NCBI GenBank assembly: GCA_964016885.1
Contig: OZ024747.1
Coordinates: 4,960,001 to 5,024,000, forward strand
Reading direction: 5' to 3'
Source of the DNA: Eledone cirrhosa
Taxonomy: Eukaryota
DNA length: 64,000 nt
Shown: positions 1,935-52,097 of the stretch, piece after piece
How the letters are laid out: every line of letters starts with the position of its first letter
Numbering within the stretch: the stretch's first letter is position 1
The notes under the pieces: generated by a model
Seen by the model: the letters and a program-made list of their open reading frames with translations, nothing else
Databases searched by the model: none
What the model was told of the DNA's origin: nothing
Position numbers and translations under genes: made by a program

Positions 1935-2050
1935 AGATAGGGTGTGGTAAAAACCAGCTAAACCATAACCCACCAGAGTACTCGGTACTTGGAGTAGTGG
2001 GTAATATGAAAACATTCAGGACCCTGACGGCTGAGCTGGATCCTGGATCT

Positions 2051-2055
<5 letters not shown>
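1935..2055 (-). mobile_element. Old, diverged family H copy
   Basis: gtgtggtaaaaaccag...ccataacccaccagagtactc...gtgggtaata...gacggctgagct, between (AT)n tracts. Confidence 0.6.
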
Positions 2056-2111
<56 letters not shown>

Positions 2112-5758: not shown

Positions 5759-6220
5759 ATATACTTGCAGTGATACCCGGTGTTACCTAGTTGTCGACTA
5801 TATAGAAACAACCTTATTATATCAGGGGAGTGGCACTCTAAGAGCCACTCTCCCACACCTGGTGATTTTTCCTTGCATTGCTTTTGAGAGGAAGCAGATA
5901 TTTCTGAGATTTGGTGACGTTTCCTGAAATTTACTTTGATAAATGCTCACGTAACTAATTTTGAAAACATTCTCCCCAGTTGTTGTTACCCAAAAGAAGC
6001 CGAGAGGGTATTCTGGGGGACTGCAATGGGAGAGCTGAGTGACATTTTGAAAGAAACATTCTAAATGTGCACAGAACAGTGGAAGGAACCTAGTTTCAAG
6101 AGTATTAGAATTGTAACACGTTAAGTACGAAGGAGTTTTCCCAGCCTAACGTCAGATACCTTTTCGACTGACCTCGTACATATATTTACATTATGCATAT
6201 ATATATATATATATAGATAA

Positions 6221-6381
6221 TAGGGACAAGTAAGACGCCGACGGCTGAGCTCAAGCCGTTTCGACGGCTGAGCTCAAGCCGTCGGGGTCTTACTTGTTCC
6301 TATTACCCACGCTACTACCCTAAGTATTGAGTACTTTGGTGCGTTATGGTCCACCTGGTTCCTTACCACATTTCCTTCGTT
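6221..6381 (+). mobile_element. Family H copy with collapsed centre
   Basis: Same arms and tail; the central hairpin is deleted or rearranged. Confidence 0.85.
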
Positions 6382-9453: not shown

Positions 9454-10816
9454 CAGTTGCATTTATCTTGCTTTATGTTCATACGAGTTTTCACCAAGTC
9501 ACAACCAGTGTATGTCAACATACATACACACACATGCATCTTTAGGTGTTTAGATTTGTGACGTTCTTATATTGGCAGAATCTTCCTTAGTATATGGGCT
9601 GTTCCCATTAGTACTATCTTTTGTATTTCTTCTATACGCGGGTTTCCTGGGATTTGCGATAAGGTATCATTCCTAGAGCACCTACAACGACTGGTATTGT
9701 TTTAGTTCTCAATTTCCACATATTTCCAATTTTCTATCTCAAGGTCCTTTTACTTGCTCAATTTTTCAAATGTTTTTATAGATACATTCTTGTCTATTGG
9801 AACAGACATATCAATTAGCATCATACTCTCTTTTTAAAGTCCTTCAGTATTATATCAGGTCTATTTGCATCTATTGTTCGGTCTGTTTGGATGCTAAAGT
9901 TCCACAAGATTGAGATGTCATCTTTTTCAAGTACGGGATGTGGTTGATGCTCCCACCAATTCTTTTGATGGGGCAGGTCAAAAGGCTTACCCATTATCCA
10001 ATGTATGTATTGTGCAGCTCTGTCGTGCCTGTTTAGGTATTCGGTTAGAGCTATAGGACAGCACATTAAAATTATATGATCAATGGTCTCTGGTTGTTTT
10101 TTACATACACGGCATAATGGATTGCATCCATTTTTTTATTATGTTGGCTTGGTAATTTTTTGTTGGCAGACACTGATCTTGTGCTGATATAACCAGTCCT
10201 TCAGTCTCCGATTTCAGTCCAGAGGATGCCAACCACTGATGGGTTAAAGTTTTGTCAACATCAGGATTGTTAGCTCTTTCTGGGTATTTTCCATACAGAG
10301 GCTTTTCTTGCCATTTCTTAGCCAGTTTCTGTAGCAGTTCTTTCTTTGCAGTTACTTTTACCTGCTTTGCTTTTTCTGTGTTTTTCATTTCAGCAGTAAA
10401 TGGAACTTCTGAAATTTGTAGTTCATTAGTGCATCTTTTGTAATGGAGTATGATCTTTTGATGCTTTCGTGTTTCAAAACGAGTTTGATCATCCAATCAT
10501 GTGATTCCCTTAGATATGTAGATAATCCAATCGTTGCAGTTTTCAACGCAATATCTAACTGGATTAACCCACGTCCTCCTTCTTTCCTAGAGAGACATAT
10601 TCTATCTGTATCTGCCTTAGGGTGATGCATTCTGTGCATGGTTAAGACTTTTCAAATTTTTGTATCGAGCCTACGGACCTCTGTGCTTGACCAGTTGATG
10701 ACATTGTAACTGTAGGTTACTACTGGTATGGCAAGCGTGTTTATGGCATCGATACTGTTCCGTGCATTCAATTCCGTTCTTAATATTGCTCTTACTCTGC
10801 GGTAACATCCCTTCCT
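9454..10816 (-). mobile_element. 5'-truncated R4/Dong-type non-LTR retrotransposon (RLE endonuclease), degenerate
   Basis: HHPKADTDRICLSRKEGGRGLI, WLASSGLKSETEGLVISAQDQ, CCHC remnant, YLNRHD, NRPDIILKD and VVGALG occur across frameshifts. It is flanked on both sides by (TAA)n, the known Dong/R4 target type. Confidence 0.88.
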
Positions 10817-15686: not shown

Positions 15687-16643
15687 TAGCAAAATCGTTA
15701 GAACGTCAGACAGAATGGTAGAGTCGTTAAACGTCTGATAGAATGGCAGAGTGGTTAGAACGTCTGATAGAATGGTAGAGTCGTTATAACGTCTGATAGA
15801 ATGGTAGAGTCGTTAGAACGTCAGATAGAATGGCAGAGTGGTTAGAACGTCAGATAGAATGGCAGAGTGGTTAGAACGTCAGGTAGAATGGCAGAGTGGT
15901 TAGAACGTCAGGTAGAATGGCAGAGTGGTTAGAACGTCAGATAGAATGGCAGAGTGGTTAGAACGTCAGATAGAATGGCAGAGTGGTTAGAACGTCAGAT
16001 AGAATGGCAGAGTGGTTAGAACGTCAGATAGAATGGCAGAGTGGTTAGAACGTCAGATAGAATGGCAGAGTGGTTAGAACGTCAGGTAGAATGGCAGAGT
16101 GGTTAGAACGTCAGATAGAATGGCAGAGTGGTTAGAACGTCAGATAGAATGGCAGAGTGGTTAGAACGTCAGATAGAATGGCAGAGTCGTTAGAACGTCA
16201 GATAGAATGGCAGAGTGGTTAGAATGTCAGATAGAATGGCAGAGTGGTTAGAACGTCAGATAGAATGGCAGAGTGGTTAGAACGTCAGATAGAATGACAG
16301 AGTGGTTAGAACGTCAGATAGAATGGCAGAGTGGTTAGAACGTCAGATAGAATGGTAGAGTGGTTAGAACGTCAGATAGAATGGCAGAGTGGTTAGAACG
16401 TCAGATAGAATGGCAGAGTGGTTAGAACGTCAGATAGAATGGCAGAGTGGTTAGAACGTCAGATAGAATGGCAGAGTGGTTAGAACGTCAGATAGAATGG
16501 CAGAGTGGTTAGAACGTCAGATAGAATGGCAGAGTGGTTAGAACGTCAGATAGAATGGCAGAGTGGTTAGAACGTCAGATAGAATGGCAGAGTGGTTAGA
16601 ACGTCAGATAGAATGGCAGAGTGGTTAGAACGTCAGATAGAAT
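15687..16643 (+). repeat. 29-bp minisatellite (~33 units) inside a SINE head
   Basis: Unit agaatggcagagtggttagaacgtcagat. The SINE starts at ~15676 and its body resumes at 16644-16760. Confidence 0.95.
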
Positions 16644-17507: not shown

Positions 17508-17936
<429 letters not shown>

Positions 17937-17940
17937 TATA

Positions 17941-18148
17941 TAGGAACGAGTAGGACCCCGACGGCTGAGCTCAAGCCGTTTCGACGGCTAATTCTGGACT
18001 AAATTAGTCCAGAATTAGCCGTCGAAACGGCTTGAGCTCAGCCGTCGGGGTCCTACTCGTTCCTATTACCCACTCTACTACCCTAAGTATTGAGTACTTT
18101 GGTGCGTTATGGTCCACCTGGTTCGTTCCTTACCACATTTCCTCCGTT
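17941..18148 (+). mobile_element. ~200-bp hairpin mini-element (family H): 125-bp palindrome + 83-bp tail
   Basis: Palindrome centred at 18003, then tail tacccactctactaccctaagtattgagtactttggtgcgttatggtcc.... (AT)n flanks both sides. Confidence 0.9.
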
Positions 18149-18174
18149 ATATATATATATATATATATATATAA

Positions 18175-21967: not shown

Positions 21968-22214
21968 CAGATTTGTTTTATAAATAAATATTGACATACC
22001 CGGAAAAAAAGACAACATATATATATATATATACACACATACATATATGTATATATATATATATATATTTCAAACTATTGCATAATTAAACAAGATATCA
22101 TCAGGAAAGGCGTTTCCTGATGTTAGCTAATGTATTGGGTAGCTTATTAACCTTGGCTAACACCGATTGAACCCGGGATTCACACACGCGTGCGCGAGTA
22201 CACACTCAAACACG

Positions 22215-22247
<33 letters not shown>

Positions 22248-22419
22248 ATATTATTTATAGTTATATATACAATATATACAACTATAAACAGGAAAGGTCA
22301 GTAATTTATTACTACCTTATTACCAGTAAGAAAAATAGCTCAATGTAAATACATGAGATGTTTTACAGAGCAGGAATATAAATTACACAATAATCAAAAC
22401 TATGTTCAAATCATTTTAT

Positions 22420-22466
22420 TGCTAACAATCGTTTCTTCCAAACTTTCGTTTGGTATCCTCAGAGCA
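22420..22466 (-). ncRNA. Minimal type-I hammerhead ribozyme motif
   Basis: tgct-CTGAGGA-taccaaac gaaa gtttggaa-GAAA-cgattg-TT-agca, followed by AATAAA. Confidence 0.75.
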
Positions 22467-22829
22467 CTAGCAACGTTTGGACATATAATTAACTGCCTAT
22501 TCAACTGAACAATCATATAGATACATGGATATTAAAGTTGTCCACAACAGTTTCGTATTTACAGAGTGGATTGGATGTGACAGAGACTACAAGAGAATAG
22601 TATAATAATTAAAGCAGTATAGAGAGTGCAACTACGTTGTATGTCCTGTATATGCCTAACGTATTTGCACTCTCTATACTGCTTTAATTATTATACTATT
22701 CTCTTGTAATCTCTGTCATATCCATTCCACTCTGTAAATACGAAACTGTTGATGACAACATTAATATCCATGTATCTATATGATTGTTCAGTTTAATAGG
22801 AAGTTAATTATATGTCCAAACTTTGCTAG

Positions 22830-22876
22830 TGCTCCGAGGATACCAAACGAAAGTTTGGAAGAAACGATTGTCAGCA
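22830..22876 (+). ncRNA. Hammerhead motif, mirror copy with core mutation (CCGAGGA)
   Basis: tgct-CCGAGGA-stem II-GAAA-cgattg-TC-agca-ataaa. Confidence 0.65.
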
Positions 22877-22915
22877 ATAAAATGATTTGAACATAGTTTC
22901 GATTATTGTGTAATT

Positions 22916-22986
<71 letters not shown>

Positions 22987-25594: not shown

Positions 25595-27136
25595 TGTATG
25601 TATGTATGTATGTATGTATGTATGTATATAGCTATATTTCCACTCACACTTAGGCGTGTGCAACGAGTCAACCGCACGTGCAACTAATTTACGACAGACA
25701 CATCATATTACCAACGGTATTTCATAGATAAATCCATCTTTCTACTCACCCTTTTCCCCTCTATCCCCTCCCCCCTCTTTTTATCTTCCGGTCCCATCTC
25801 CTCCTACCATACTCTATAATTACTTACCCTCTCCCATATCCTCCCAGCCTAAAATATACACCAGCATCCTCTTCAACAAAGCCATCCCCACCTCTAAAAC
25901 ATGCCCGCCACTAATCAACTTTTGAGAGAGAGCCCCCTCTGTGTTCGCTTGACCTGCTAGAAATATCTGCCAAATCTAGCTTAAATTACACCTTTTCCCT
26001 TAAACCGACTTAAACTGCCATAAACCGACTAAAACCGACTTAAAAACGAATAAGTTGAATAATGTTATACTAAGGTTCCATAAACATAGGAAAAAACACG
26101 TGATGGTCACGGCTAGAATGCTTTTGAGCGTGGGTTTTCTTAAAAAGGTCTAACCTATGTCTAAACGTTGAAGTAGCCTAGTGGTGGGTCCCGCTCCTGG
26201 ACAGGGTTACTCCAGGATACTCAGCTGCAAATGAGTACCAGTAATAACTGGGGAAGGAGACTCTTACTCTGAGTCGCTTAAGCCACGAAAACCAGGACAA
26301 ACATCGGTCTGGCGAGCGGCAGGGCTTGCGACAGACCTTAAACTATGGCTAAACACCACTAATATCAACAAGAACATCATTACCATCAACAATAAAATCT
26401 TAAAGGCCTTTTACCTTGTTACTTGACTTGCTAGTAATAGTAGGTAAATCTTCCTCTGATCACAACAATATCGTCTAAAGTTGGATAATATTCAGACACA
26501 ATGTCTGGATAAAAGATTTGGATGGTCATGGTAGGAATGCTTTTGATAAATAGGAACAACTAGAAATAGCAGCCATGCTTTCTTCAAATCCTCCTTTTCC
26601 TTCAAATTCAATAAGAATCGATAAGATCCCAGACTTCATTTGTTTATCGATGGTAGGGGTGGAAATCGTCAGATTCGACCAAGGAAACAAACTTTTCCAT
26701 TGGTCTTTCCAATTGCTAATGCTATCTAACAGTCACAATTCCTGACAAAAGGAACAGCCTGAAATAAAGTGTTTGCGGAAGGACATAGCGCATCGTTTAC
26801 TCTGAGAATCAAACTCACAACCTCACGATTGTGAATCCAATTATCTAACTACTAAGCCAACCCCCTTTACCAAATTACCTTACTTACTGTCTTAAATCAA
26901 TACAAATCTAATGGACAATGTGGCCCTTGATATACACAAACAAAGGATAATCAAAGCTAGAAACCTTTTAATCATAGGTTTTCTCTGTGATGGTTGATCT
27001 GGGGCTAAACAAGTACTATAGCAACAAACAGGAACATCTATACGGTCGTCATACCTGCTAGAAATAGTATCTAAATCCCACTCAAATTATACTGAAAACA
27101 AAATACTTTAGATAATGTAGTACTTTAATCCTTTGT

Positions 27137-27745
27137 TTCCCTGAGGCTCGGCCTCCGGATCTGCCAGCCACACCCATGTCGCTGCGGTTCCACCGTGGAC
27201 TCTTTCGACCTCCACCCGCTTTCCTGTCGCCACAGTGCCGGCCGAATTCCACGCCATGCTGCCCTCAACGAAGTCATTAAGCATGGCTTGGACGCTGCAG
27301 GCTTCCCTTCCCAGCTCGAGCCGGTGGGGCTGGATCGAGGGGACGGCAAAAGGCCAGATGGTATGAGCATCTTCCCGTTCCGCGGTGCCAAACCCCTCGT
27401 CTGGGATGCCACTTGCACCGACACTTTCTGCAGCCGCAACCTGGTGCAGTCTGCGACTGACCCAGGTTCTGCTTCGCGTGGGCTGAGGGGGCCAAACTCC
27501 TCAAATACCGGTTGCTCTCCGACAGCTTTGCGGTCGTACCCCTGGCACTGGAGACTTCTGGTGTCCTCGGCCCCAGGGCTATCTCCTTACTCACCTCCAT
27601 AGACGCTGGGCTGGGCAGCCGCAGGTGTGAGCCCCGCGAGTTGGAGTGGCTATTCCAGCGAGATCCCTCGCCGTCCTCCGTGTAAACGCCTTCTCCATTC
27701 TGTCTGCCGGGGCTGTAGGTGGGCCCCATCGCGTACCGTTGTAGT
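27137..27745 (+). pseudogene. CRE-type non-LTR retrotransposon 3' fragment: zinc knuckle + restriction-like endonuclease
   Basis: GC-rich island reading LRLGLRICQPHPCRCG...HPLSC...RHAALNEVI...EP...DGKRPDG...VWDATCTDT, then after a frameshift AEGAKLLKY...PLALETSGVLG...WLFQR. Confidence 0.85.
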
Positions 27746-29790: not shown

Positions 29791-29980
29791 GCGATCTAAT
29801 AGACATTATATATATATCCTCCGAATGAAACAGTTCTAGTCCTGTAGAAGCCATTTGTATATTAAATATTTATACTCTGTTATGTATTGAGTACCTTACT
29901 TACTGAGGTTACCCCCGACTGAACCCGGGCTGTTTACCTTTTACATACATACATACACACACACATACACACATATATAT

Positions 29981-30075
29981 AACGAAGGAATTGTGGTAAT
30001 GAACCAGATGGACCATAACGCACCAGAAATAGCCGTCGAAACGGCTTGAGCTCTGCCGTCGGGGTCATACTTGTT

Positions 30076-30079
<4 letters not shown>
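29981..30079 (-). mobile_element. Family H copy with one arm deleted
   Basis: The tail end is joined directly to the short arm at ...gcaccagaaatagcc.... Confidence 0.8.
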
Positions 30080-30796: not shown

Positions 30797-30799
<3 letters not shown>

Positions 30800-30996
30800 C
30801 GAGTAGGACCCCGACGGCTGAGTTCAAGCCGTTTCGACGGCTAATTCTGGACTAAAATTAGTCCAGAATTAGCCGTCGAAACGGCTTGAGCTCAGCCGTC
30901 GGGGTCCTACTCGTTCCTATTACCCACTCTACTACCCTAAGTATTGAGTACTTTGGTGCGTTATGGTCCATCTGGTTCCTTACCACATTTCCTTCG

Positions 30997-30998
<2 letters not shown>
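30797..30998 (+). mobile_element. Family H copy
   Basis: Nearly identical to 17941-18148. Confidence 0.9.
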
Positions 30999-31077
<79 letters not shown>

Positions 31078-31110
31078 TATGTATGTATGTAAAAAGTAAA
31101 CCAACTTTTG

Positions 31111-31171
31111 TATTTTATCTGATGAGAGCGTACCAAAATGTTGGTATCCTTGAAATATATATAATAAAATA
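31111..31171 (+). ncRNA. Minimal type-I hammerhead ribozyme motif
   Basis: tattttat-CTGATGA-gagcgtacca aaatgt tggtatcctt-GAAA-tatata-TA-ataaaata, with an 8-bp stem I. Confidence 0.82.
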
Positions 31172-31214
31172 AATATGATTTTATAAAGATTGCTTACATT
31201 TATTAATCTTATTG

Positions 31215-31276
<62 letters not shown>

Positions 31277-31283
31277 CATATAT

Positions 31284-31618
31284 ATATTACTTCAAAATAT
31301 TAATAAATATAGACATTCATGTGATCAAATATATTTCATTATACATATTTCAGAGATACCGAGCTATTTCAACAGTACGTCCTCATCAGATAAAATAAGT
31401 TGATGCCTGACATACCTTGACTATGTTGATGGTTATAATTTAGTCATTATAACCATCAACATAGTCAAGGTATGTGAAGCATCAACTTATGTCAGGCATC
31501 AACTTATTTTATCTGATGAGGACGTACTGTTGAAATAGCTCAGTATCTCTGAAATATGTATAATAAAATATATTTGATCACATGAATGTCTATATTTATT
31601 AATATTTTGAAGTAATAT
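31284..31618. mobile_element. ~335-bp fold-back palindrome with hammerheads at 31332-31397(-) and 31505-31570(+); tail to ~31670
   Basis: The arms are near-perfect reverse complements centred near 31441, with a small duplication in the right arm. Motif: [19 protein letters not shown] II-GAAA-tatgta-TA-ataaaata. Confidence 0.9.
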
Positions 31619-31764
31619 TAATAACTCCAGAAAACCTTTTACTGTAGAGTGCTTATAATCTATTGTGAAACTTTATTCATTGATTAATTCATTGAACCTT
31701 GTTAAACTTTTAATAATAATAATAATATATATATATATATAAAATTTGCTCCGAACGAAATACC

Positions 31765-34280: not shown

Positions 34281-34356
<76 letters not shown>

Positions 34357-34487
34357 GATAAATCTACCAAGAGTTTACGGTAGTGTCCAATCCGTATGAA
34401 GAACTCAATGTATTCCGGATATCATGGAAAGAAGAGATGTAATGAAAATCCAATTTCGGTGAAAGATAAACGGTATACAGAGTCAAG

Positions 34488-34882
34488 ATAAAATATTAAA
34501 CAAATAATGAACAAACAATTCCTTATATTAAACAAAAAAAGTTCACTATTTAACGATCGTTTCTAGGGTATACATGTGTTATAATTGGTATGCATATTTA
34601 ACAGATCTATGTACAAAATTATACAAAATTATACAAATTATCAAGATTAAATATACATACCTAACTCATATATACGCCGTCTTCTGAAGACGGCGTATAT
34701 ATGAGTTAGGTATGTATATTTAATCTCGATAATTTGTATAATTTTGTATAATTTTGTACATAGATCTGTTAAATATGCATACCAATTATAACACATGTAT
34801 ACCCTAGAAACGATCTTTAAATAGTGAACTTTTTTTGTTTAATATAAGGAATTGTTTGTTCATTATTTGTTTAATATTTTAT
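34488..34882. mobile_element. 395-bp near-perfect palindrome centred on 34685; tail at 34354-34487
   Basis: The centre reads gccgtcttc-t-gaagacggc. I saw only two arm mismatches. GAAAcgatcgTT lies in the left arm on the minus strand, with a mutated mirror on the right. (AT)n flanks both sides. Confidence 0.92.
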
Positions 34883-40721: not shown

Positions 40722-40801
40722 TACTGTTCTATATTTTTGAGACGAGGAATTATTTACATTATATATATTGGACGGATAGGTGTCCTCATCTTGTTTTGTT
40801 A

Positions 40802-40845
40802 ACAACGTTTCGGCTGATGTACTCTCCAGCCTTCATCAGGTGTCC
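40802..40845 (-). ncRNA. Minimal PLE hammerhead in the inverted pseudo-LTR (mirror at 42163-42206 with CTGGTGA core)
   Basis: acac-CTGATGA-aggctg...cagcc-GAAACGTT-gt, with palindromic aacgtt in place of stem III. Confidence 0.75.
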
Positions 40846-40949
40846 TAGTGATGTTATTATTAACGTTTGTTCAGGTCACTGCCTAGAATTGTACTCGGTA
40901 TCTTGAGGTTAGTAACCCGCTTTTTAACCACTTTTTTCCCTGTGATTCT

Positions 40950-41954
40950 TTGATGAAAATGTTGACCTTCTGTGTAGAAACTACCTACTTCAGAATGGAC
41001 ACTGATATATATCGACAAGAGGAGGGTTTAGCTATGGGTTCGCCATTATCATCAATAATAGCCAATATATACATGGAATTCTTTGAGAATTTAGCTTTAG
41101 GATCAACACCACTAAAGCCAACCCTATGGCTTAGATATGTTGATCACACCTTCATACTCTGGCCCCACCAAGAAGAGGTCCAAGTACTGCTAGATCATGT
41201 GAATTCAATAAAGCCATCAATGCAGTTCACAATGGAAAAAGAAAAAGACAATCATCTAACATTACTGGATGTATTAATAACACGCACTGAGTATGGGTTC
41301 AAGACATCCGTATACGGCAAGCCAACCTTCACTGGACGATACCTCAACTACAATACTCACCATCCATACAGTGTAAAGAGAGGGATGGTTCAGTGCCTAA
41401 AACATCGAGCAAAGAATATAAGTAGCGATCCTGATACACATCACGAAGAAATGATCAAGCTAAGTAACAATTTGTTAAGCAACAACTATCCAATAAACAT
41501 ACTATCCACTCCAATTAGGAAGGGGAGAGAGGATGAAACCTTAAAATTGACCACAGTCTGTCTACCCTATGTAAAAGGCCTCTCAGAAAAGATACAAAAG
41601 ATATGCGGTCCATATGACATCAGGACAGTATTCAAGAGTAATACAACACTTCGCAAATATCTCCTTCGAGTAGAACTACCAATAGAAGAGAATATGACCA
41701 AAGACTGCGTGTACTCCATCCCAGGCAGTTGTGGTAGGTTATACAAAGGCGAAACAGGCCGCCCCCTCAAAATAAGGATAGAAGAACATAGTAAAGCTGT
41801 GACACGAGGAGAGATCGATAAATCGGGTATAGCTGATCATGTATGGAAAGACGGAAATCAACTTTCTCTGTGGGATGAAGTTAAAATAATAGACAGAGAA
41901 CACGACTGGAAAACACGAAAACTAAGAGGCAGCACATATGCTGGGACACAATAA
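40950..41954 (+). pseudogene. PLE reverse transcriptase (C-terminal part) + GIY-YIG endonuclease, inactivated
   Basis: YRQEEGLAMGSPLS (RT4), WLRYVDHTF (YVDD mutated to YVDH), LLDVLI, CVYSIPGSCGRLYKGETGRPLKIRIEEH (GIY-YIG). It is 5'-truncated and has a frameshift near the 3' end. Confidence 0.92.
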
Positions 41955-42269
41955 CCTCCTAAGCAGACCTAGTGCAGATATGAGTAGTATATGGGGACCG
42001 GTGTAGAGGGGTGATAGAACAATGTCAGTTTATAAGCCCTAAAAAATATAAAACGAATCACGGGAAAAAAAAAAGTGGTTAAAGAGCGGACTACTAACCT
42101 CAAGATACCGAGTACAATTCTAGGCAGTGACCTGAACAAACGTTACTAATAACATCACTAGGACACCTGGTGAAGGCTGGAGAGTACATCAGCCGAAACA
42201 TTGTGTTAACAACAAAACAAGATGAGGACACCTATCCGTCCAATATATATAATATATATATATATATAT

Positions 42270-42465
42270 AGGAAAAAGTATGACCCCGACGGCAGAGCTC
42301 AAGCCGTTTCGGCAGAGCTCAAGCCGTTTCTGGAAATAGCCGTCGAAACGGCTTGAGGTCTGCCGTCGGGGGTCATACTTTTTCCTATTTCCCACTCTAC
42401 TACCCTAAGTATTGAGTACTTTGGTGCGTTATGGCCCATCTGGTTCCTTACCACAATTCCTTTGT

Positions 42466-42466
<1 letters not shown>
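42270..42466 (+). mobile_element. Family H copy abutting the PLE 3' end
   Basis: Same arms and tail with an internal ~19-bp duplication. Confidence 0.88.
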
Positions 42467-51066: not shown

Positions 51067-51125
<59 letters not shown>

Positions 51126-51126
<1 letters not shown>

Positions 51127-51181
51127 CCGCCTGATGAGGTCATAGCCATTCAATGGCTATCATCGAAATATATATAGCAGT
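51126..51181 (+). ncRNA. Minimal type-I hammerhead ribozyme motif in a ~100-bp element between (AT)n tracts
   Basis: accgc-CTGATGA-ggtcatagccat tca atggctatcatc-GAAA-tatata-TA-gcagt, followed by AATAAA. Confidence 0.8.
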
Positions 51182-51222
51182 AAATAAAGGATTATGAGTT
51201 CATGCAATTGACTTATGTTTCG

Positions 51223-51285
<63 letters not shown>

Positions 51286-51293
<8 letters not shown>

Positions 51294-51621
51294 AGATCAA
51301 AAGATGGTTAAAAGAGTTCCAAGTATTTTATTATGCGCATTTCAAAAACAAATATCATCATGGGATGATATCTGCGTTCTCATCAGATAAAATAGGGAGA
51401 CATGATATGAAGCTTAAAAAACAGTTGTGAATAGTGAAGTTTTAAATCAACATATGTTGATTTAAAACTTCACTATTCACAACTGTTTTTTAAGCTTCAT
51501 ATCATGTCTCCCTATTTTATCTGATGAGAACGCAGATATCATCCCATGATGATATTTGTTTTTGAAATGCGCATAATAAAATACTTGGAACTCTTTTAAC
51601 CATCTTTTGATCTTATATTAT
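51286..51621. mobile_element. 336-bp perfect palindrome with hammerheads at 51324-51394(-) and 51513-51583(+); tail at 51622-51708
   Basis: Loop-less centre caacatatgttg (51453/51454). Motif: tattttat-CTGATGA-gaacgcagatatcatc ccat gatgatatttgttttt-GAAA-tgcgca-TA-ataaaata. Confidence 0.93.
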
Positions 51622-51873
51622 TTATACTCCAGTCCTACAAACTGTAGAGTGCTACTTATCCGATATTTGCATTGCTTTATTGTGCTACAATAAAACTCCC
51701 CTCTACATTATATATATATATATATAAAACGTAATGAAGGAGTAACCAATCGTCCTTGTTTTATTTTATCTTACTATATTACACTCTGTCTAGCTCTACA
51801 CCTCGACACAGAAGTGAACCTAAACATCGAGTGCTCACCCGGGTGAACCTACAGTAACTCCAAGTTACATTCC

Positions 51874-51905
<32 letters not shown>

Positions 51906-51907
<2 letters not shown>

Positions 51908-52094
51908 CAGAAGAAATGTGGTAAGGAACCAGGTGGACCATAACGCACCAAAGTACTCAATACTTAGGGTAGTAGAGTGGGTAATAGGAACCAGTAAGAC
52001 CCCGACGGCTGAGCTCAAGCCGTTTCGACGGCTAATTCTGGACTGAATTAGCTGTCGAAACGGCTTGAGCTCAGCCGTCGGGGTCTTACTGGTT

Positions 52095-52097
<3 letters not shown>
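51906..52097 (-). mobile_element. Family H copy
   Basis: Same arms and tail; centre gctaattctggactgaattagc. Confidence 0.9.

Follow-up and report, generated by a model that had tools for sequence, protein, structure and literature searches.

A lopsided fold-back family with probable half-hammerheads in (TA)n tracts of Eledone cirrhosa, likely derived from Penelope-like elements

Family H is a non-coding repeat of about 200 bp that occurs in the stretch of Eledone cirrhosa DNA analysed here (64,000 nucleotides, hereafter the window) as unequal inverted repeats set in (TA)n. The (TA)n flanks, two fixed 3' ends, variable junctions between the arms and haplotypes that match from one arm to the other make it very probable that these copies are severely 5'-truncated insertions of a Penelope-like element (PLE) in (TA)n. 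On the same grounds we favour, with less assurance, an origin of each copy from two cDNAs that were primed from both target strands at different start sites and then joined. The retro-origin proposed in the initial annotation of this DNA is therefore supported, although the route by which the inverted repeat forms appears to differ from the one suggested there.

In the focal copy, A (17941-18148), the inverted repeat spans 17940-18066 and its 63-nt arms are without a single difference, both carrying the motif GCCGTC-GAAA-CGGCT-TGAGCTC-AGCCG-TC-GGGG. A 21-nt arm motif had 14 matches in the 64-kb window when up to 3 mismatches were allowed, and none of 100 shuffles contained any. BLAST identified eight copies, which together occupy 1369 bp (2.1%) and are all flanked by TA runs. 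Copy B (17597..17787, minus strand) has a haplotype other than that of A and 4 arm differences, while copy C (30797..30998, plus strand) shares A's haplotype and, save one base in a run, its junction. The others, named by their first position, lie at 51906..52097 (minus), 42270..42466 (plus), 6218..6381 (plus), 29981..30078 (minus) and 1940..2056 (minus); the last is old and divergent, about 76-79% identical, with about 76% to copy A, and has a short arm of about 16 nt. Since arm differences range from 0 to 4 per copy and identity between copies from 74 to 95%, the sequences suggest that family H was inserted repeatedly over a long time. Copies A and B, of different haplotypes, are 150 bp apart within one TA tract (17597-18148), the (TA)n between them covering 17789..17942 and that on the right of A covering 18147..18173, which suggests that TA runs beside earlier copies serve as targets. 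The window is rich in microsatellites and also holds a minisatellite at 15697-16643 (29-nt period, 32.7 copies, 97% matches). An imperfect inverted repeat at 2127-2404 (280 nt, 79%), apparently two opposed SINE-like pieces, adjoins copy 1940.

Four public runs (X1, X4, X9 and X21) were aligned to 18002-18148, and read depth was left out as a measure of copy number. Run X1 placed 16,591 contigs and run X21 placed 23,210 reads on this interval, with the same two ends as in the window; family H is therefore a very abundant family rather than an assembly artefact, and the eight copies and great abundance announced by the initial annotation are both borne out. Runs X4 and X9 contributed 3 and 5 contigs only, and so provide no evidence for family H in other species. 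One copy per 8 kb, if typical, would correspond to the order of 10^5 copies, an extrapolation from a single window. In X21, 7220 read ends accumulate at 18013, at an AATT that is likely the restriction site of a RAD library, and these were excluded. No reverse transcriptase (RT) or endonuclease reading frame in the window could be tied to family H, the arm patterns had no match in metagenome, viral and prokaryote genome contigs, and no homologue was found for the translated arms. One match of a translated arm, to P0121, was dropped as a 24-fold repeat that sums weak matches.

The arms of family H are consistently unequal. Every copy reads (TA)n, a short arm running out to ...TTCCTAT, the junction, a long arm ending in ...CCTTCGT or a close variant, and (TA)n again. 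In copy A, the short arm (17940..18006, minus strand) passes from ...TTCCTAT into (AT)n at the presumed RT start site 1, the long arm (18004..18148, plus strand) ends at the presumed RT start site 2, and the tail present on one arm only measures 82 nt (18067..18148, plus strand). The excess of the long arm before (TA)n was 78-86 nt in all six copies with substantial overlapping arms, and copies 29981 and 1940 obey the long/short rule as judged by eye, so that one long and one short end were found in eight of eight copies (six measured, two by eye). If arms picked their sites at random, the calculated probability of eight mixed pairs would be 0.004. The public runs contain the same ends: loose ends behind 18066 enter (AT)n in 98 X1 contigs and 3570 X21 reads, and those behind 18122/18124 reach the end of the long arm and then (AT)n in X1, X21 and X9. 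Two fixed 3' ends thus enclose a tail of ~80 nt that is confined to one arm. The initial annotation had described a stereotyped palindrome; the inverted repeat is real, but it is not symmetric, since one arm is ~80 nt longer in every copy. The four other ORF-less fold-back families of the window are all lopsided as well, by 91-138 nt. The long/short asymmetry is the feature that identifies the element class, and by analogy it likely represents the PLE 'tail' that lies between two start sites of reverse transcription.

The arm itself is likely to be the 3' half of a hammerhead ribozyme, judging from its sequence. It contains a GAAA box, an A-U-closed helix III of 6 bp and GUC as the NUH site; in copy A the putative half, with GAAA, helix III around the palindromic TGAGCTCA and the GUC site, lies at 18024..18046 (plus strand), and its likely short-arm counterpart, recognized by sequence, at 17960..17982 (minus strand). 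The pattern Y-GAAA, an A-U-closed stem of at least 6 bp and UH, which was chosen once the sequence had been seen, was present in 20 of 5000 dinucleotide-shuffled versions of the arm, and in 75 of 5000 when the stem was set to at least 5 bp. The cited sections of PMC4209133 and PMC6765202 list a palindromic loop 3 and a C ahead of GAAA as traits of PLE hammerheads; helix III of family H exceeds the 1-2 bp that PMC4209133 gives as typical of animal PLE hammerheads. Among the best 40 of 128 variant rows from the reads, none falls in GAAA or GUC, and loop and distal positions vary. However, the arm folds no better than its shuffles (z 0.49), and the lowest-energy fold of copies A and C is a rival hairpin that buries GAAA, so the assignment made in the initial annotation stands as a likely one. 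Rfam returned no match in the window at the gathering score and, for two stretches at E up to 10, no hammerhead family and only sub-threshold matches, mostly to microRNA hairpins. This result is uninformative, because complete hammerhead motifs at 31119-31562 were missed too. CTGANGA is absent from all eight window copies on either strand; the copies themselves are therefore not ribozymes, and the reported lack of a CUGANGA core is confirmed.

Where the missing stem II would lie is indicated by the loose ends of the public runs. A C precedes GAAA in the arm, and the loose ends contain a complementary strand of 8 nt. The loose ends before 18004, of which 30 nt were displayed, share a continuation with ACCAGG. 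Ahead of ACCAGG, the consensus of 82 X1 contigs reads CTATTT (agreement 0.59), and one X9 contig reads GGCTATTT, about 30 nt upstream of 18004, which pairs with AAATAGCC just before GAAA. The two-contig consensus of X4 equals a tie-broken merge of the X1 and X9 strings at 29 of 30 places, compared by hand; the agreement implied by such a merge (0.717) fits the printed 0.72, and both X4 contigs therefore probably carry GGCTATTT. By hand deduction, one X4 contig combines the upstream GGCTATTT with the downstream allele AATTAGCC, though this contig may be chimeric. Because GGCTATTT in the loose ends complements AAATAGCC and also appears to occur with AATTAGCC in X4, the template itself probably encodes stem II, whose loop would measure about 33 nt, and the stem probably lies where the initial annotation had put it. 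On this reading of the loose ends, its likely 3' strand in copy A would be 18013..18023 (plus strand; AATTAGCCGTC, ending in C11.1). In the putative parent, CUGANGA would be positioned just past the 30-nt upstream continuation.

We also compared the points at which the arms meet, expressed as short/long arm start in copy A positions, with overlaps judged by eye. Copies A and C join at about 18004/18004 with a TTA overlap; in A the junction occupies 18001..18006 around a 3-nt unpaired centre, its presumed parental reading being taken from the loose ends. The arms of copy 51906 meet at about 18012/18006 without overlap or microhomology, those of B at about 18013/18010 with three unmatched bases, and those of 42270 at about 18010/18012 with a GA overlap, after a 20-nt tandem slip ahead of the junction. 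These five of the eight junctions lie at or just 5' of the likely stem II strand, 10-20 nt 5' of GAAA, and show 0-3 nt of microhomology. The junction of copy 6218 falls within helix III after a 23-nt tandem slip and that of 1940 near 18051/18035, just past the GUC site, while copy 29981 joins about 18009 to 18100, its otherwise non-overlapping arms (the short arm and the last ~49 nt of the tail) sharing CTGG. Altogether, seven distinct junctions were found among eight copies. The four differing centres quoted in the initial annotation do exist, and the location just 5' of GAAA holds for five copies but not for 6218, 1940 and 29981; mapping the fold-back points of the window's eight copies thus gives a cluster with three exceptions. 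Diagnostic alleles match between the arms in all six comparable copies, among which there are four haplotypes.

The public runs yielded 13 listed joints, which come without direction. Twelve connect opposite strands, and six connect 18004-18016 to the tail (18070-18105) in this manner. None of the 13 is near-symmetric, perhaps because hairpins are lost in such libraries. Four that end at 18060 were disregarded, since they likely reflect breaks in the alignment of a divergent subfamily. A third subfamily is common in the reads, with GGATC before TAGC, CG in loop 3 and GACTCT after GUC (variants at 18016, 18032-18033 and 18054-18059); the old copy 1940 resembles it.

These features may be explained as follows. 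A PLE GIY-YIG endonuclease would cut both strands within (TA)n, whereupon one target strand would prime at site 1 (TAT overlap with the target) and the other at site 2 (TA overlap). The element RNA would be uncleaved at GUC, because both arms cross this site. Synthesis of both cDNAs would end prematurely, in most cases no more than about 20 nt 5' of GAAA, at nested hairpins that probably stall the enzyme, so that the CUGANGA half would never be reached. The cDNA ends would then anneal via 0-6 nt or be end-joined, usually at a point inside the probable stem II, and fill-in would give a lopsided palindrome that is predicted to be catalytically dead in cis and to code for no protein. [quoted passage not shown] The available sections of Craig 2021 (PMC8557442) likewise describe PLE insertions with an inverted 5'-truncated copy, a tail often at one end only and a (TA)n bias. 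The tail of family H, at 82 nt against a published 30-40 nt, argues against the PLE reading. Further, it is possible, but rather doubtful, that PLE integration is strictly asymmetric, with a dimeric protein on uncleaved RNA using site 1 and site 2 and never the same site twice; the long/short rule was obeyed by 12 of 12 clear two-armed insertions from five families of the window.

The initial annotation had proposed instead that a single cDNA snaps back on the stem-II hairpin. In its fuller form, a cDNA that starts at the end of the tail folds back in or near stem II, copies itself as far as site 1 and is then joined. We consider this unlikely overall, although it accounts readily for the five near-symmetric junctions clustered 5' of GAAA, for haplotypes common to both arms in six of six copies and for the template-encoded stem visible in the loose ends, and palindromes at inverted PLE junctions have been interpreted as self-priming (Arkhipova 2013, PMC3846280, in the section cited). 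Indeed, five of eight junctions are, by analogy, equally expected from self-priming, which counts against two separately primed cDNAs. However, the three remaining junctions lie elsewhere, the window centres do not match the roughly 33-nt loop of the reads, and the varied junctions fall mostly on the 3' side of that loop. Copy 51906 has no pairing at the switch point, and self-copying gives no reason for second-strand synthesis always to stop at site 1. The short arm of copy 29981 cannot have been copied from its long arm unless part was deleted later. Because of this copy and because the central loop of copy 6218 is oriented as the short arm, priming from both target strands fits better, and the six listed joints that link 18004-18016 to the tail also speak for it. 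Non-overlapping arms could nevertheless result from later deletion, and matching arms from gene conversion. Nor does independent joining predict the common junction of A and C, which leaves room for a hot spot or for a palindromic unit that was recopied. Such recopying is the essence of a further proposal, that a few palindromic masters without the 5' ribozyme half are copied whole by PLE protein. Copies A and C lie at different sites with haplotype and junction in common, the upstream GGCTATTT (within the 30 nt displayed) could be the inverted arm of a master, and pLTR sequences alone are described as mobilisable in trans in the part of PMC3846280 cited; yet seven junctions differ among eight copies and, chimerism aside, GGCTATTT together with AATTAGCC in one X4 contig is not expected of a copied arm, making this proposal improbable as a general account.

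Two other possibilities concern the identity of the element rather than its joining. Family H might be PLE-derived while its GAAA...GUC region is a nest of AGCCGTC/ACGGCT repeats serving as another RNA signal, as in the 3' ends of Naiad PLEs, which lack canonical hammerheads (PMC8557442, sections cited). Both main haplotypes can form the hairpin AGCCGT-CGAA-ACGGCT without a mismatch, octopus Naiads insert into (TA)n and terminate in a stem and, after it, GTCGAAAC, and Naiad_Ovul is labelled 'HHR_half_core' in the Craig 2021 supplement. We find this very improbable, however, given the rarity by chance of the exact 3'-half pattern (20/5000, for a pattern chosen post hoc), the sparing of GAAA and GUC among the best 40 of 128 read variants, and the absence of the searched arm motifs from published Naiad sequences. 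A TA-targeting DNA transposon (MITE), a Helitron-type or tyrosine-recombinase element, or an assembly artefact is scarcely credible. Family H is indeed short and non-coding, with an inverted repeat and TA flanks, but terminal inverted repeats around a fixed interior were not found in its copies: the repeats are not terminal, their inner ends vary freely and one copy is without an inverted repeat. The variable 5' truncation largely refutes this class of explanation. Short reads and contigs from other runs also show both ends, and the copies span 0 to 4 arm differences with 74-95% mutual identity.

Neighbouring fold-backs in the window bear on the preferred reading of truncated PLE insertions joined from two cDNAs. 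Three of the four lopsided neighbour families have complete hammerhead motifs. With a descriptor scan, complete type I motifs were located in each arm of 31284-31618 and of 51289-51618, at 31119, and in one arm of 22380-22916, with 20-36 nt between the boxes. The elements at 31284-31727, 51289-51710 and 31088-31215 are related (ATTTTAT-CTGATGA, a 26-36-nt stem II, GAAA, a palindromic loop and ATAAAAT); those beginning at 31284 and 51289 are fold-backs, and the arms of the latter are 100% identical. The fold-back at 22245-22916 has 263-nt arms with a hammerhead-like motif, in which the right arm reads CCGAGGA vs CTGAGGA. Another, at 34355-34879 (34491-34879), has CTGAAGA at its centre; next come a 115-nt rod (-38.6 kcal/mol, z -6.2), GAAA, a CGATCG palindrome and TT. 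Its one-sided tail is 138 nt, and a hammerhead whose stem II is unusually long is a possible reading. The complete type I motifs and the CTGAAGA with its 115-nt rod indicate that long stem II inserts and junctions within the motif do occur here.

A PLE is also present at 40760-42251, where a 355-codon RT frame lies between inverted repeats with a hammerhead-like motif. The frame (40887-41954) matches Pfam RVT_1 at E 1.2e-6, just under the curated cut-off, and has a GIY-YIG-like end as judged by eye. The best named relative of an RT frame in the window comes from Octopus sinensis (72% identity). The arm asymmetry of this PLE is ambiguous. It adjoins family H copy 42270 over a short (TA)n run, but was not assigned as the partner of family H because the terminal repeats differ. 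Several smaller elements were seen as well. A short one at 22067-22200 has CTGATGA...GAAA-TATATA (minus strand), with a small fold-back immediately 5' of the box, and its other end resembles 29900-29940 (TGAACCCGGG in common). A single-arm element between TA runs at 51125-51227 starts 6 nt before CTGATGA and has a palindromic TATA helix III. Several families have a word resembling GAGTAC/GAGTGC close to their 3' ends (18085-18098, 42107-42117, 29881-29897, and about 31645 and 51645), possibly a protein-binding signal, or chance. Frames at 9821-10496 (minus) and 27129-27602 (plus) have the look of decayed non-LTR retrotransposon ends, with zinc-knuckle and nuclease-like motifs by eye.

In L1 twin priming, both target strands prime cDNAs, and joining at microhomology gives an inversion; there, the internal site to which the second primer anneals varies, and neither part repeats the other. 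Family H resembles this in its cDNA pair and microhomology join, but its starts are fixed and its arms usually overlap. With the endonuclease-bearing PLEs (Penelope/Poseidon, Neptune, Hydra; cited sections of PMC8557442, PMC3846280 and PMC11167929), family H shares an inverted truncated pLTR, a tail at one end, a (TA)n target without discernible duplication, microhomology junctions and a hammerhead-like motif shortly before the 3' end. Unlike them, it has no ORF between the arms, keeps only about 60 and 145 nt, has a tail longer than published and has its ribozyme motif cut. Minimal hammerheads that occur in pairs, on opposite strands and 100-700 bp from each other, are ascribed to truncated PLEs in the cited parts of Cervera and de la Pena 2014 (PMC4209133). 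The structure of family H is therefore of a known kind, with back-to-back motif copies, a truncated PLE and a palindromic loop 3 in common; however, in family H the junction lies within the motif, only 3' halves are left and helix III is 6 bp. Naiad PLEs, octopus included, share the (TA)n target, heavy 5' truncation and lack of a complete hammerhead (PMC8557442, sections cited). Copy A, with its identical arms, contrasts with the cephalopod Naiads, which are described there as old remnants. Five arm motifs of 9-12 nt had no match in the text of the Craig 2021 supplement, octopus Naiads included; an 8-mer of the arm had 5, and the 2 listed were unrelated. Non-LTR retrozymes, as portrayed in the sections cited of bioRxiv 10.64898/2026.07.22.740005, are likewise short, non-coding, hammerhead-associated and PLE-linked, but form head-to-tail tandems of complete ribozymes, whereas family H is inverted, dispersed and incomplete; no head-to-tail array with complete hammerheads was found among its eight copies. 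Literature coverage took in few subscription journals and neither Repbase nor Dfam, and within it no description of family H or of an obligate long/short rule was found.

Family H is an abundant, so far unnamed family, likely consisting of dead copies left over from PLE insertion. In O. vulgaris, 190 PLE families account for 6.83% of the genome (PMC13282606, section cited), and the passages cited from PMC8557442 and PMC11167929 treat the origin of PLE inverted repeats as an open question. Recognition of family H is useful in repeat annotation, where it could pass for a MITE or a microRNA hairpin. The element itself is ordinary, and its value lies rather in the data set that it provides: with its abundance, two fixed ends and short, varied junctions, priming from both strands and self-priming become separable by counting. 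Should PLE integration prove strictly asymmetric, stem II would act as a stop and the genome would fill with half-hammerheads, A and C may be among palindromes that are recopied whole, and hundreds of thousands of junctions would provide a read-out of the second half of the PLE cycle.
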